Sequence record: OR352933.1
DNA length: 43,345 nt
Strand: one strand, 5' to 3'
Origin: Escherichia phage AV102
Part shown: positions 2,688 through 40,955 of the stretch, piece after piece
How positions within the stretch are numbered: the first letter of the stretch is position 1
Layout: the number at the start of each line of letters is the position of its first letter
The notes under the pieces: model-generated
What the model saw: the letters and a program-made list of their open reading frames with translations, nothing else
Database searches by the model: none
Told to the model about the DNA's origin: nothing
Program-made: the position numbers and the translations under genes

Positions 2688-3287
2688 TTATCTAGGTATA
2701 GCGGCAACTGCCGCTTGCGTTGATTTGAATTCATTCCCTATAGCCTTAGATTCCCACATACGGCGCTCCCATAGGCCCCAGCATACCTTATTACGCTGCC
2801 CGTTAATATACTGAGAGCAGTCAAAGGTCCAGCGGTTGCCACCCTTGTACACCCAACCGGTGCCTGGGGATTTCTGCTGGTACTTGCTAATGTAACGCCA
2901 GTTCAGCACAGCCTTTCCAGCCGCTGCGTAATCTAGGTTTTTGAGGTGCCGTTTCACAGCGCTGCCATTGAAGCCGGCTACGCCTACGTTATAGATGAAG
3001 TCTACAGACCCTATCAGAGCCACGTCAGAGAGCTGCATAGGAAGCCCGTCAAGAGCCTTAGCATGTTCCCCTGCTGATTCTATCAGTTGCTTCTGACAGT
3101 CGCTCAGCGTGGCTCTCTGACCCATTTTGACACCCTTTGTCTCCCCGTAGCAGATCGTAGGGATACCGGCACTGTCCTTGTAGGCTGTAAGACTCAAACC
3201 TTCATTGTGCTGGACTACCTCAGTAATAGCCCCGCCAAGCATAGTAGCCCCGGCGAGTGCAGCTATAACCCTAGTCCTTAAACTCAT
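2688..3287 (-). CDS. Endolysin, T4-lysozyme-like muramidase (GH24) with signal-arrest-release N-terminus
   Basis: Catalytic E-x8-D-x5-T context (NEGLSLTAYKDSAGIPTICYGET); Gly/Ala-rich weakly hydrophobic N-terminus RVIAALAGATMLGGAIT. Start moved to the internal Met at 3287 (RBS AAGGGGG upstream); the track ORF extends to 3311. Confidence 0.8.
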   Translation of the reverse strand: MSLRTRVIAALAGATMLGGAITEVVQHNEGLSLTAYKDSAGIPTICYGETKGVKMGQRATLSDCQKQLIESAGEHAKALDGLPMQLSDVALIGSVDFIYNVGVAGFNGSAVKRHLKNLDYAAAGKAVLNWRYISKYQQKSPGTGWVYKGGNRWTFDCSQYINGQRNKVCWGLWERRMWESKAIGNEFKSTQAAVAAIPR

Positions 3288-37158: not shown

Positions 37159-37361
37159 TACTTAATCTCGATACTGTTAGCGTATACTATTCCACACAAT
37201 AAAATGTCTCTTTCGGGTACATTCACCTTCCGCCCATCGTCCAGACGGTATATGTAGCCACCCTCTACCTTTATAGCCCAAAAACTGCGTGATCCCCAAG
37301 TGAACGGGATACCAACCACAATACTCTTAGGTGGCATTTTGTACGTGATAATTTTATGCAC
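37158..37361 (-). CDS. Hypothetical protein (67 aa)
   Basis: ORF coupled to neighbours. Confidence 0.45.
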   Translation of the reverse strand: MHKIITYKMPPKSIVVGIPFTWGSRSFWAIKVEGGYIYRLDDGRKVNVPERDILLCGIVYANSIEIK

Positions 37362-37830
37362 CTGCTTTCTCCTTACGTTTGATATCCATAGCCATACGAC
37401 GAAGATCGTGCGCCAGTTGCAGGGCTGCGTCGGGACTCATATTAATACCGATCTCCCGCTCCGCCCGGGTGCTGTTCTTTTTAGGAACTATTCCGATGTA
37501 GAGTAGGTTCTCATCAGTCCAACTGCATCTTTCTAGGACTAGCCGCTGGTCGTTGCCGCGGTCGCGCTTGGAGTTCATGTAAGCCACACTAGCTGGAACC
37601 GGTGGCAGCTCGTCGTCCGGCTCTTGGTACAGTTTGAAGTATTCAGCGCACCAGGGAACTGGGTCCCCATAACGCTGCATACCGTCAAGCTGCAACCAGT
37701 AACCACCAGCACTAGTGCGTGTTACAGTATAATAATCCTTGACGCCTTGATTATATCTCAAGAGTTCCATGAACCCGGGACCTGCTTCGCCTACTACTTT
37801 ATCACCAACTTTAAACTTAGCCATAATCAA
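37354..37830 (-). CDS. Hypothetical protein (158 aa)
   Basis: ORF with ATGA overlap to the upstream peptidase-like gene. Confidence 0.55.
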   Translation of the reverse strand: MIMAKFKVGDKVVGEAGPGFMELLRYNQGVKDYYTVTRTSAGGYWLQLDGMQRYGDPVPWCAEYFKLYQEPDDELPPVPASVAYMNSKRDRGNDQRLVLERCSWTDENLLYIGIVPKKNSTRAEREIGINMSPDAALQLAHDLRRMAMDIKRKEKAGA

Positions 37831-38861
37831 CCCTCCACAATATTATCATATCCACCCCAGTCCTCTACAACTCGGGTGCCTAGTTCAATCAGTTCTTCTT
37901 TGAAGCCATAATCAGAATACACCATGATGTACTCTGCCGCCCTTGCTGGATTATCTAGCACCCAGCTAATCAGTTGCTGCTTAGAAAGTTGTGACACCTC
38001 CTTAAACGCTGCTAGTAAATGTGGATCCTCCGTAGGGGGAACATCCAATGGCATCGTTAGGGGATGCGTATAGGCAGATAACCACGCATCCGGTTCCACT
38101 ACTTTAGGATCACGCTCAATCGGTAGGTGCTTGAATGTACCCGGACTAAGTACGTGCTCCAGTACGCTACCAAGAATGCTAAGGTCCAGCACCTCATCCG
38201 GAGTATGCTCGTGCATGTACCCTACACCTACGTTAGTGCATTCTGGGATAATCTGCATGAACTCAGCGGAGTCAGTGTATACTCCTTTCTGTAAGTGCGC
38301 ATCCGTCCGCCCCAGTCGAGCCGCCAGTTCTTTTGCGAACGTATCAGAGCAGCAACGCTGGTACCGTTGATGCGTAATGATACCATCACCTCGGCGGTCA
38401 AAACTGATCATTGCCTTGACACCAGTCCAGAAGCCAGTGTCGTCCTTGGCGGATGCATTGCTACCTTCACAGCCTACCTCTTCATCCACGAAGAAGCAGT
38501 AACGTCCATGTACTCCCCGCTTAATCATCTCCAGCATCAGGTAAATACCGGCACCACAGTCCGCTCCGAGGCAGTCTGCAACCTGCGGGTTACGCAGGAA
38601 CATTACACCCTTGTTAGTGATTGCAATGTCTGGCGCAGCGCTACCAGGCCGGGCCACTGTATCCAGATGTGAAGTAAACGCTACATCACTCTGTTCAGAG
38701 CCACCAATAAGCACAAAGTAGTTACCATGAGCGTCTCTTACATAGTGCTCTGCACCAGCAAGAGCGCTACTAAGTAGAGGTTCAAACCATTTGGTACTAC
38801 CCCAGCTAGGTCGGTGCGTTGTTAGTATCTTTGTCAGTAGTTTAAGGTCAACACCATACAT
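37827..38861 (-). CDS. M28/M20-like dinuclear zinc exopeptidase-fold protein
   Basis: Ordered motifs SHLDTV (His/Asp), GADCGAG (bridging Asp), VDEEVGCEGS (Glu-Glu), HEHTPDE (His...Asp) match the M28 aminopeptidase signature order. Confidence 0.6.
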   Translation of the reverse strand: MYGVDLKLLTKILTTHRPSWGSTKWFEPLLSSALAGAEHYVRDAHGNYFVLIGGSEQSDVAFTSHLDTVARPGSAAPDIAITNKGVMFLRNPQVADCLGADCGAGIYLMLEMIKRGVHGRYCFFVDEEVGCEGSNASAKDDTGFWTGVKAMISFDRRGDGIITHQRYQRCCSDTFAKELAARLGRTDAHLQKGVYTDSAEFMQIIPECTNVGVGYMHEHTPDEVLDLSILGSVLEHVLSPGTFKHLPIERDPKVVEPDAWLSAYTHPLTMPLDVPPTEDPHLLAAFKEVSQLSKQQLISWVLDNPARAAEYIMVYSDYGFKEELIELGTRVVEDWGGYDNIVEG

Positions 38862-40858
38862 TAAGCTGCCTCCTGTTCTGCTTTAGCTTCTTTGTCTTCT
38901 TCGGCTTCTTCATTACCGAGGTAGGGCTCATCCAATACGGACGCAGCATACTCCGTGAGAATCATACCGTGCACTGGGTGCTCTTCGGCATGCACACTCA
39001 GAACATTGTACCCTTGTACGCACACCATTGGCCCCATATCATGAACTGTGCCCTCTACAGCACAATGTTTTACGTCACAGTCAAGTACCCAAGAATCGTG
39101 GTAATCGGACCATGAACAATCCCATGATGGGTACACCCGGTCGCGCCCTACTACTTGTACGTAAGTATCCCCAATGCAGTGGGTACATACATAACCACCA
39201 TCAGCAGCTATGTACATGTCCTCCTCGTCGAAACGTCCCCCACACTCTGCACAAGCACTGCGACCATCATCAATCCAAATGTACCCATCAGCGTCCTGCG
39301 CTTCGTAGTCGTAGCAGTCGCAGATAACGAATGCATCCCCGCCCAATTCATCAACCCCGTCTTGGTTCCCATCCAAGTACGGCATAAGCACGGCACCATC
39401 ATGCTCCGGGTGCGGGATACGCGCCAGTAGTGCGCCATCTAAGCAGTCTGTATCGCACTCATATCCATTAGCACGCAGGATGGCATCTGCAGCATCCCCA
39501 TATGCACGGACGTATTCATTGGTTTTGATGTTAACGATAGCACGGGCGTGTACTTTAAAGTCATCGCCAAAAAGTTCACCTGTATACTGAATAAACAGTC
39601 GCAGATTATTGTCAGGCAGGCCGTGACTGGTCGTAGCGTATACACGCACCGGGCTATATTCGAATTTGTATCTGGTCATGCAGCTACTAGGGCCATTCTC
39701 GTACGCGTTGTACCACTCCCGCTCGGTCTTACAAAGATATGTAGTAGGTTCCACGTTCATAGCTTTGAGGTCTTCAATACATTCCCGGAAGTCTACACCG
39801 CTGCCGTAGTAGTTAGCGAGCCACTTACCTACACGCATCTCCACACAGCGATACTCAGTAACAGCGGCATAATCTTTGTGCAACCGCGGTTGCCCCAGCA
39901 TTACTACAGGCTCACCGTTGCGGAAGCCAAAACCCAGCGGGATTGCAAACCTAGACACTACAAATCCGTGCAACTGCATAAGCAAGGTTGCTGCCCAGTA
40001 ATCTCCCTCACGCCCAGTGTACGCGCCGCAAGTGTATTTGGCCCGGAGGGAGTACGTAGGTGCTAGCATAATCTCTTCGAACAACTCTATAGCCTGCTTG
40101 TGCACTTTGTATCCGGTAAAGTATTGGACCGCTTCTACTACGCGTTCTGTAACTACGTCGGGGCCATCATAGAAGGTTCTGCTAGATAAACCGAATGCCT
40201 GGTCGCAGGTGGCTGCAGGGTCAAGGAGTTTATGCAGGAGAGTGTCACTAATAGAAACTGTGCCCAGCGGCCCAGTAAAGTTACCCAACTCCTCTCCTGC
40301 AGCTGTAAAGTTGCCGAGTGCTACAATAGGTCCCGGCAGCACCCTTGACAACATATAAACGCCATGCAAAAGCGCACGTGTTTTGTTACTTCGCACGCGC
40401 ACACGGCCTTGAGTTGATAGGTAGGGAAGTTGGCACCAGTAATCCCCGGAAGAGTACATACTATCCTTCAGTGGAAGAGCATTGGCCCCTTCTGGAAATT
40501 TGATGGTCCAACTCTCATAGACAGGTACTTTTACGTCTACAGTTACTTTGTTAGTCTCTTGCATTTTCTTTGTCTCCGGTGTTAGTAGTAACTCATCATA
40601 CGTTAAAAGTTCAGCGCGCATACCACGCAGAGAGTTGTCGCTGCTTGTAGTAGGCGCGGAGTGCTCTTCTAAATTGCGTATAAGCCCCGCGATACCCATA
40701 CTTCCGTAGCGCTGCAACCACATCAAATGCGATATGCTCTTGAAGTTTCCGCGCGGCAGATTCTGTATACTCCCGGTATGCTTTGAGCACAACCGTTGTG
40801 TCTTGCCTGCGCACTCTAAGTATTCGGCGATCGACCGGTACAATTCCTTTGAGTTCAT
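38861..40858 (-). CDS. Large early orphan protein with Cys/Asp-rich C-terminal region and acidic tail
   Basis: Up to 665 aa; start uncertain (alternative ATGs at 40621 and 40564; the first 82 codons overlap the upstream ORF). C-terminal region has CxxC...CxxC pairs (CAECGG...CTHC); no enzyme motif recognised. Confidence 0.55.
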   Translation of the reverse strand: MNSKELYRSIAEYLECAGKTQRLCSKHTGSIQNLPRGNFKSISHLMWLQRYGSMGIAGLIRNLEEHSAPTTSSDNSLRGMRAELLTYDELLLTPETKKMQETNKVTVDVKVPVYESWTIKFPEGANALPLKDSMYSSGDYWCQLPYLSTQGRVRVRSNKTRALLHGVYMLSRVLPGPIVALGNFTAAGEELGNFTGPLGTVSISDTLLHKLLDPAATCDQAFGLSSRTFYDGPDVVTERVVEAVQYFTGYKVHKQAIELFEEIMLAPTYSLRAKYTCGAYTGREGDYWAATLLMQLHGFVVSRFAIPLGFGFRNGEPVVMLGQPRLHKDYAAVTEYRCVEMRVGKWLANYYGSGVDFRECIEDLKAMNVEPTTYLCKTEREWYNAYENGPSSCMTRYKFEYSPVRVYATTSHGLPDNNLRLFIQYTGELFGDDFKVHARAIVNIKTNEYVRAYGDAADAILRANGYECDTDCLDGALLARIPHPEHDGAVLMPYLDGNQDGVDELGGDAFVICDCYDYEAQDADGYIWIDDGRSACAECGGRFDEEDMYIAADGGYVCTHCIGDTYVQVVGRDRVYPSWDCSWSDYHDSWVLDCDVKHCAVEGTVHDMGPMVCVQGYNVLSVHAEEHPVHGMILTEYAASVLDEPYLGNEEAEEDKEAKAEQEAA

Positions 40859-40955
40859 CTGGAACCTCTTTGAATATTTCCCACGGGCAGCCGCACTTGC
40901 CCTGCGTTTCTAGCAAGCGCCAACACAGTAGCGCTGTTTCGTCTACTGTAAGCAT
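40611..40955 (-). CDS. Hypothetical basic protein (114 aa)
   Basis: Arg/Lys/Tyr-rich early ORF. Confidence 0.5.
   Translation of the reverse strand: MLTVDETALLCWRLLETQGKCGCPWEIFKEVPDELKGIVPVDRRILRVRRQDTTVVLKAYREYTESAARKLQEHIAFDVVAALRKYGYRGAYTQFRRALRAYYKQRQLSAWYAR

Follow-up and report, generated by a model that had tools for sequence, protein, structure and literature searches.

What do two tightly spaced genes, one for a large hypothetical protein and one for a putative peptidase, contribute to Escherichia phage AV102? The window analyzed here is the whole stretch of 43,345 nucleotides (OR352933.1) of this KP34-like Drulisvirus podophage, in which every gene lies on the minus strand. The pair fills about 3 kb (7%) of the genome and is located between the early genes and the replication genes, with two small genes between the peptidase gene and the primase gene. 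Drulisvirus (KP34-like) phages are among the most widely used therapy candidates for Klebsiella and E. coli. The gene for the large protein, upstream of the peptidase gene, is referred to as ORF A (open reading frame A). The two genes were delimited as follows:

38861..40858, minus strand: ORF A in its longest form, 665 amino acids (aa) plus stop, homolog of KP34 gp10, phrog_6980 (from the ORF list, PHROG and comparison with KP34)
37827..38861, minus strand: peptidase gene, 344 aa plus stop, homolog of KP34 gp11, phrog_4191 (from the ORF list, PHROG and motifs)

Comparison across viral and cellular genomes revealed that the pair is a conserved two-gene module, found in very distant phages and prophages, whose linkage, although strong, depends on the clade. 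Of eight independent, distant lineages sampled from the ORF A side, which share the core only at 20-27% identity, seven have a peptidase homolog downstream of ORF A and on its strand (next to it or overlapping in six, at 1.3 kb in one), and in one it is absent. Two of these downstream peptidases, tested explicitly with hhalign, gave a probability of 100% (E = 3e-67 and 5e-62). Vibrio (Maculvirus), Pseudomonas (Kantovirus) and Shigella (Bucovirus) phages keep the same order ahead of the primase, helicase and polymerase genes. From the peptidase side, 13 true clade members were identified in 185,579 species genomes; nine have an adjacent gene of the ORF A family, and three of the four that do not are truncated or short loci. 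In cellular assemblies, this phage-specific peptidase clade occurs mainly on short contigs or contigs of metagenome-assembled genomes, and proved to be prophage at the one locus whose context was checked. This locus, one of the nine, is on a Rhizobiales contig (L113, UCJH01000004.1) that carries a T7-type terminase, the pair, a tyrosine integrase and the host trigger-factor gene tig, and is clearly an integrated T7-like prophage, an example of a temperate Autographiviridae-like element. Among viral contigs, the peptidase family is present in at least 587 stretches, many of them on contigs of 100-480 kb, and in one clade (L015-L032) an ORF A-type gene of about 330 aa follows the peptidase immediately downstream, namely in inverted order, in 17 of 18 loci. 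The module recurs in Vibrio, Pseudomonas, Pectobacterium and marine phages and in T7-like prophages, and is inverted in large phages, which turns the annotation 'hypothetical protein + peptidase' into a defined, testable unit. Our tentative reading, quite possible rather than probable, is that ORF A and the peptidase act together, presumably in a complex, with ORF A as the source of specificity or substrate and its tail as the recognition element.

Several loci show other arrangements. On a Ciceribacter sp. scaffold (L105, 974-3772), two tandem ORF A paralogs, both ending in Ala-Ala, precede one peptidase gene. Several large phage contigs have two copies of the peptidase family, for example IMGVR_UViG_3300008114_003234 (L020, L033), 3300042691_044271 (L017, L069) and 3300032236_002285 (L024, L064); one copy is from the clade that goes with a partner, the other from a clade that has none adjacent. 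A large phage contig (L023, 8338-10248) harbors a PhoH-like gene, interrupted by an intein that contains a LAGLIDADG endonuclease, just downstream of a peptidase/short-partner pair; the neighborhoods of the pair in large phages contained generic genes only (PhoH, NUDIX, glycosyltransferase, Fpg-like).

The AV102 pair is the counterpart of gp10 (655 aa, 'hypothetical'; ORF A) and gp11 ('peptidase') of the type phage KP34, which, together with gp9 (114 aa), show the same overlaps as in AV102. Homologs in KP34 and other Drulisvirus phages and in Bucovirus, Maculvirus (VP93-like), Kantovirus and PhiM1-like phages agree with it in the order and sizes of the genes, in the stop/start overlap and in the location ahead of the primase; with no substantive difference from the KP34 group, the AV102 pair is a member of it. 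Identity at the DNA level is 88-91% with Escherichia phages EC22.5-2, ZH5 and Minorna, the last of which is placed in Autographiviridae; Slopekvirinae; Drulisvirus, and likewise with Klebsiella phage KPV811; the region matches 228 phage records, mostly from Klebsiella. GenBank labels the second gene 'peptidase' or 'peptidase M28-domain containing/Zn-dependent exopeptidase superfamily protein'. In PhiM1-like phages, a conserved early 'putative peptidase (IPR007484)' is reported to follow a conserved hypothetical protein and to be the only early-region ORF with a predicted function (PMC6115819). An earlier note on this DNA had considered a zinc exopeptidase unusual in an early module; in KP34-like, PhiM1-like, Bucovirus, Maculvirus and Kantovirus phages, it is instead a conserved gene that already carries an annotation. 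Neither this peptidase annotation nor the gene pair as such is new: both can be found in databases and the literature, where our searches on the pair retrieved mentions at the annotation level only and no published function for either gene. The breadth of the ORF A family and its core signature, the occurrence of the module beyond Drulisvirus, the Ala-Ala terminus and the maintained overlapping leader are new.

The two genes meet at the following element:

38859..38874, minus strand: coupling junction, Shine-Dalgarno AGGAGG (38874-38869) within the end of ORF A, then the TAATG overlap (38863-38859)

The junction reads ...cAGGAGGcagctTAATG, the ORF A stop TAA (38863-38861) and the peptidase ATG (38861-38859) having one base in common, and AGGAGG, a consensus Shine-Dalgarno sequence, lies 7 nt ahead of the peptidase start. 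Judged by this TAATG and Shine-Dalgarno arrangement, the two genes are translationally coupled. Both reading frames and the stop/start overlap at 38859-38863, as first read in the earlier note, were confirmed, with the Shine-Dalgarno sequence as an addition. In most loci examined, the junction between the two genes is likewise an overlap or a gap of at most 13 nt.

By sequence and model, the second product is predicted to be a stand-alone dinuclear-zinc exopeptidase-type protein of the MH clan (M20/M28/M42) with a complete ligand set. It belongs to phrog_4191 'peptidase' (E = 6e-144), passes the Pfam Peptidase_M28 (PF04389) cut-off marginally (22.7 bits versus 21.3, E = 9e-5), and falls below those of Peptidase_M20 (PF01546; 16.8 bits versus 24.6) and Peptidase_M42 (PF05343; 13.3 versus 23.2). 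All 121 homologs aligned, some of them only about 33% identical, have the residues H65, D67, D101, E127, E128, D155 and H219 without exception. Their codons and the remaining feature of this gene are:

38669-38667, minus strand: codon of ligand H65
38663-38661, minus strand: codon of ligand D67
38561-38559, minus strand: codon of ligand D101
38483-38478, minus strand: codons of E127/E128
38399-38397, minus strand: codon of ligand D155
38207-38205, minus strand: codon of ligand H219
37830..38096, minus strand: C-terminal helical extension (about aa 256-344), modelled with low to moderate confidence, not part of the MH catalytic domain, variable between clades

Searched against the PDB, the family profile retrieved PepT 3gb0 (E = 5.9e-14), tripeptidase 3rza (1.5e-13) and TET1 2cf4 (4.4e-7), and in these matches the motifs FTSHLDTV, LGADD-AG, DEEvGc-GS and GY--EHT align one for one, as they do onto PepT 3gb0. 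The AlphaFold2 (AF2) model has a predicted local distance difference test score (pLDDT) of 83.6, mostly above 90 over residues 1-250, and Foldseek matched it with probability 1.00 to M42 TET, M20 PepT and M28 SGAP structures, at 11-19% identity to the solved enzymes. The protein has the same alpha/beta catalytic fold as M20 PepT-type (3gb0, 3rza), M42 TET (2cf4, 2wyr) and M28 (1tkf) enzymes and the ligands of the MH clan in the same order, namely H-x-D, bridging D, catalytic E plus ligand E, D and H. Unlike M20 enzymes, it has no lid/dimerization insert, and unlike M42 enzymes, no PDZ-like oligomerization domain; in the model, E128 and D155 are only about 27 residues apart, with no lid or oligomerization insert. 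In contrast to the solved MH enzymes, it carries a separate C-terminal helical extension of about 90 aa. By sequence, the peptidase is closest to PepT/TET, and it is M28-like in being single-domain. The ordered dinuclear zinc exopeptidase motifs proposed in the earlier note are borne out by the invariance of these residues and the fold match; its description of the protein as M28/M20-like stands at the level of the MH clan and not as a clear M28 assignment, given the marginal Pfam score and best matches to M20 PepT and M42 TET. In Pseudomonas phage YMC11/06/C171_PPU_BP (L003, 5254-6056), the peptidase homolog is annotated as two ORFs, BH776_gp21 and gp22, a sign of a frameshift, of a pseudogene or of an error in sequencing; the ORF A homolog of this phage has no Ala-Ala ending.

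The earlier note had described the large protein as an orphan, which it is not. ORF A corresponds to phrog_6980 (E = 0, residues 1-659) and also matches phrog_13313 (E = 3e-15, residues 390-550); distant members of the family match both, and all PHROG assignments are to families of unknown function. With tblastn, ORF A was detected in 294 phage records, among them phages of Vibrio, Pseudomonas, Shigella and Cronobacter; its identity to KP34-clade proteins is 57-59%. Among 1.84 billion representatives, a profile search retrieved 1,315 clusters (50% identity) at E <= 1e-3, 331 of them at <= 1e-10, and no homolog encoding the ORF A core was detected on plasmids. As regards clear homology to a known family, relatives are abundant, and the family they form is uncurated. 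This breadth bears directly on an idea raised by the earlier note, in which the pair would serve host takeover or anti-defence as a device peculiar to the early region of AV102. The position of the pair between early and replication genes is compatible with it, as is the fact that no database assigns the genes a housekeeping function. Such genes, however, are usually variable accessories, whereas this pair belongs to the core of several genera and is found across hundreds of phage lineages whose hosts differ, and a PADLOC scan found no defence-related match to the pair; we consider such a device very unlikely.

The domains of ORF A were placed as follows:

39989..40564, minus strand: lineage-specific N-terminal domain (about aa 99-290), confidently modelled, conserved only in Drulisvirus-like phages
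39299..39988, minus strand: family core domain (about aa 291-520), from alignments of distant relatives
38951..39298, minus strand: four-Cys zinc ribbon (C536/C539/C558/C561), then acidic beta-hairpin array (about aa 521-636)
38864..38950, minus strand: acidic C-terminal tail, ending -Glu-Ala-Ala-COOH

Residues 444-665 contain 5.4% C, 13.1% D, 4.1% H and 9.0% E, compared with 2.0, 4.3, 2.0 and 6.4%, respectively, in residues 99-443; exactly two CxxC pairs are present (C536-x2-C539 and C558-x2-C561), and the protein ends in the acidic tail ...NEEAEEDKEAKAEQEAA. This count agrees with the Cys/Asp/His-rich C-terminal third, CxxC pairs and acidic tail noticed in the earlier reading of the DNA. The part common to distant members spans residues about 290-620, the N-terminal part being lineage-specific. 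Its core motif residues are Y386, G389-P-x-S392-C393-M394, Y407, A438-R439, R451-x-Y453-G454 and P493-Y494-L-D496. Near-invariant in 119 distant representatives are Y386, G389, S392-C393-M394, Y407, A438-R439, R451, Y453-G454, G465, G475, P493-Y494-x-D496, G525 and C536/C539/C558/C561, the last four being present in 94-100% of them, and a MAFFT alignment of 138 full-length sequences returned the same set. The predicted zinc ribbon consists of two CxxC knuckles about 20 residues apart, with the hairpin array in the model and weak LIM/RING/ZZ matches. The short relatives of about 330 aa keep Y386, SCM, Y407 and AR439, and by inspection R-x-Y and PYLD, without the zinc ribbon. Across these alignments, the conserved unit is the SCM-PYLD core and not the Cys-rich part, and the conservation pattern of this core resembles that of an enzyme or ligand-binding site.

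The AF2 model of ORF A, built from the family alignment, reached pLDDT 90.0 and a predicted template modelling score (pTM) of 0.73. Foldseek retrieved nothing from the PDB at E < 0.1, and from BFVD only uncharacterized phage proteins; BFVD matches at the tail of the list to 'Amidoligase', 'PcfJ like' and 'LIM' were weak and short, probably concern the zinc-hairpin region, and were not taken as homology. Pfam and NCBIfam gave no match for ORF A or 87 distant members beyond zinc-ribbon noise, and PDB sequence and profile searches returned only noise or RING/ZZ/LIM-type matches at the four-Cys site. The protein carries neither the kinase, ligase or nucleotidyltransferase signatures that the earlier note had also found absent nor any other curated domain, and the modelled fold is possibly new. 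A role for ORF A as a replication accessory or nucleic-acid binder, for instance a substitute for single-stranded DNA-binding protein (SSB) whose acidic tail docks the replisome like that of T7 gp2.5 or E. coli SSB, would fit its location upstream of primase, helicase and DNA polymerase in all Autographiviridae examined, the absence of an annotated SSB in the curated Minorna genome, the Arg/Tyr-rich invariant residues, the zinc ribbon and the aromatic ends of the acidic tails of the short partners. Against this, Foldseek detected no OB or known DNA-binding fold, the hairpin array is highly acidic, the pair of the large phages is not among replication genes, and the peptidase partner is left unexplained, which together make such a role very improbable.

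The extreme C-terminus of ORF A is distinctive. It ends in Ala-Ala in 63 of 127 representatives and in Ala in 85 of 127, compared with 0 of 805 and 2.6%, respectively, among 805 background ORFs, each 150 aa or longer and drawn from the same viral loci. In close homologs the end is EAA (115 of 120), and in AV102 it is ...QEAA. The tails are variable and acidic, with a median of 27% D+E over the last 30 residues, and of the 63 AA-ended tails, 37 carry L, I, V or A at position -3 and 15 an acidic residue. Short partners end in acidic-aromatic tails, which in large phages resemble SSB docking tails. The possibility that Ala-Ala is a by-product of the downstream Shine-Dalgarno/start overlap was rejected, since it also occurs at gaps of 12-55 nt with an intergenic Shine-Dalgarno sequence. 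A terminal Ala-Ala is found in ssrA-like ClpXP degrons (PMC12723719) and is the critical determinant of C-motif-1 degrons, occurring in 91% of the top 100 tags of a random screen in which potent tags were hydrophobic and neutral to positive, not acidic, with the consensus [LFYW]-[LAR]-L-A-A (PMC10862746). AV102 ORF A has the terminal Ala-Ala-COOH of such degrons and not the hydrophobic, neutral or positive residues upstream of it (AEQEAA). A further likeness to the ssrA tag and C-motif-1 degrons is that many members of the family carry L, I or V at -3; the differences are that the ORF A tail is acidic and genetically encoded on a folded protein, not added by tmRNA, and that a third of the family has no terminal Ala. 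The tail may act as a degron of weak or tunable strength, provide a docking site, or be what the partner exopeptidase cuts.

At its other end, the longest form of ORF A starts inside the upstream gene in the +1 frame, with an overlap of 248 nt:

40611..40955, minus strand: upstream 114-aa gene, KP34 gp9 homolog, phrog_6167, overlapping the ORF A long form by 248 nt
40611..40858, minus strand: overlap of the ORF A N-terminal extension with the 114-aa gene (pN/pS, recoding test)
40621-40619, minus strand: start M80, the NCBI call, without a Shine-Dalgarno sequence
40562..40564, minus strand: alternative start M99 (ATG), GGAG 8-9 nt upstream, the conserved structured protein beginning just after

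NCBI calls AV102 ORF A at 586 aa, from M80, and many relatives at 562-575 aa, near M99; among the candidate starts, M1 has GAGG upstream and M99 has GGAG. The length of up to 665 aa given in the earlier note is the maximum of the reading frame, and depends on the start inside the 114-aa gene. Within the overlap, the ratio of nonsynonymous to synonymous polymorphism (pN/pS), taken over six relatives, comes to 0.28 when read in the 114-aa frame and to 1.07 in that of ORF A, and therefore the amino-acid sequence of ORF A residues 1-79 is unconstrained. The frame is nonetheless open for 89-110 codons inside the upstream gene in AV102, KP34, a 40%-identical relative (L182) and Bucovirus, an outcome seen in only 0.16, 0.19, 1.1 and 0.7% of draws, respectively, when the upstream gene was synonymously recoded. 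The 98-residue extension would thus evolve neutrally at the amino-acid level, yet its frame is kept open, and a simple mis-call of the 665-aa form was rejected on the grounds that this holds in four diverged lineages. These patterns point to probable translation of the extension, as a leader free of sequence constraint and possibly beside an internal start at M99; the open frame also suggests a frameshift fusion of the extension with the upstream gene as an alternative reading. Outside AV102, the overlap in these lineages lies at L183 (2501-2748), L182 (about 3001-3242) and L004 (2976-3244).

Both termini enter into the proposal that the peptidase processes ORF A, trimming either the Ala-Ala/acidic tail (degron removal or activation) or the N-terminal leader, as a maturation or timer device. 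Several MH-clan enzymes are carboxypeptidases acting on acidic C-termini (CPG2, glutamate carboxypeptidase II) and offer a precedent; the conserved extreme C-terminus next to an exopeptidase gene, the extension of roughly 98 residues that is kept open and unconstrained in sequence, and the co-production ensured by coupled translation would agree with it. Cleavage is hypothetical, the short-partner clade and the Vibrio-type relatives end in acidic or aromatic residues and not in AA, and a tail evolved only for removal calls for further rationale. We regard processing of this kind as quite unlikely.

Returning to the reading that the two proteins act together, the locus is a conserved phage-specific module transcribed ahead of the replication genes. 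Its second product would be a catalytically competent exopeptidase or amidohydrolase, reduced to the catalytic domain plus a clade-specific helical C-terminal extension. The first would combine an N-terminal lineage domain, the Y...SCM...Y...AR...RxYG...PYLD core, the zinc ribbon with its acidic hairpin array, and a flexible Ala-Ala tail. The two proteins would cooperate, most likely as a complex held in fixed proportion by translational coupling, in which ORF A supplies specificity or substrate and the conserved tail is recognized by the peptidase (or by host ClpXP). If so, the pair would represent a widespread phage function not described before and, probably, a protein fold that is new as well.

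Several observations weigh against joint action. Among the 62 loci of the other peptidase clades (L033-L094), an ORF A-type gene is present within 6 kb in seven and missing in 55, and therefore the peptidase can exist without an adjacent partner. Conversely, one ORF A lineage (L096, the contig with P0263) has no peptidase nearby, and no ORF A-peptidase fusion protein was found. The nearest solved relatives of the peptidase, PepT and TET, are aminopeptidases, a poor fit to action on a C-terminal tail, and both Vibrio-type and Pseudomonas-type relatives of ORF A have no Ala-Ala end, the Vibrio-type tails being acidic. The core of ORF A matches no known fold or motif, so that an enzyme-like label follows from its conservation pattern only, and both an interaction and a common substrate are conjectural. 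In the ORF A lineage without a peptidase, ORF A is followed by two small genes and then by primase, helicase and polymerase, and its C-terminus reads ...SLRRLF, without the acidic Ala-Ala tail.

The aminopeptidase relatives and the solitary peptidases are what an explanation by synteny between independent functions would draw on. The peptidase would then be a PepT/TET-like peptide-recycling aminopeptidase that raises the amino-acid supply, and ORF A an unrelated early effector whose lifetime host ClpXP limits through an ssrA-like degron, for which the critical role of Ala-Ala in C-motif-1 degrons (PMC10862746; PMC12723719) and the hydrophobic or Ala residue at -3 in 37 of 63 tails can be cited; the Ala-Ala tail would in that case be a rare instance of an encoded ssrA-like terminus in a phage family. 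Adjacency that lasts at 20-26% identity, in both gene orders and in podophages, prophages and large phages, is hard to attribute to synteny alone, and the strongly acidic AV102 tail AEQEAA is unlike strong degrons. Independent functions seem to us unlikely, and joint action of ORF A and the peptidase is preferred.

Known systems offer a loose parallel for a more specific form of joint action. The LysW/LysK-type amino-group carrier systems combine a small protein, which has a zinc ribbon and an acidic tail at its C-terminus, with an M20 hydrolase that releases the product. As an analogy only, the likeness lies in the four-Cys zinc ribbon, the acidic tail with a conserved terminus and the nearby MH-clan hydrolase. 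The differences are that no ATP-grasp ligase or pathway enzymes are found near the pair, that ORF A is large and has an additional conserved core, that its terminus is Ala-Ala and not Glu, and that it has no Pfam LysW match. By this analogy, ORF A might found a phage-specific SCM-PYLD superfamily with a fold absent from the PDB and form, with an MH-clan hydrolase dedicated to it, a processing, conjugation or carrier system that depends on the Ala-Ala or acidic C-terminus, a speculation that we hold doubtful; if true, many unrelated phages would use it early in infection, with loose analogy to LysW/LysK or ubiquitin-like tail chemistry.

As for the surroundings of the pair in AV102, a promoter and terminator scan gave chance-level results only. 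The 114-aa protein (phrog_6167) shows weak, sub-threshold matches to pPIWI_RE_Y (E = 0.005 in Pfam, E = 7e-4 in PADLOC), a resemblance that is probably due to chance, though consistent in both libraries. Downstream of the peptidase, a 158-aa ORF (phrog_4317, unknown function; 37354-37830, minus strand) begins at TTG 37830 in the ORF list. It more likely starts at ATG 37824, which comes 7 nt after a GGAGGG and only 2 nt past the peptidase stop, and the tight coupling therefore extends into the 158-aa gene.

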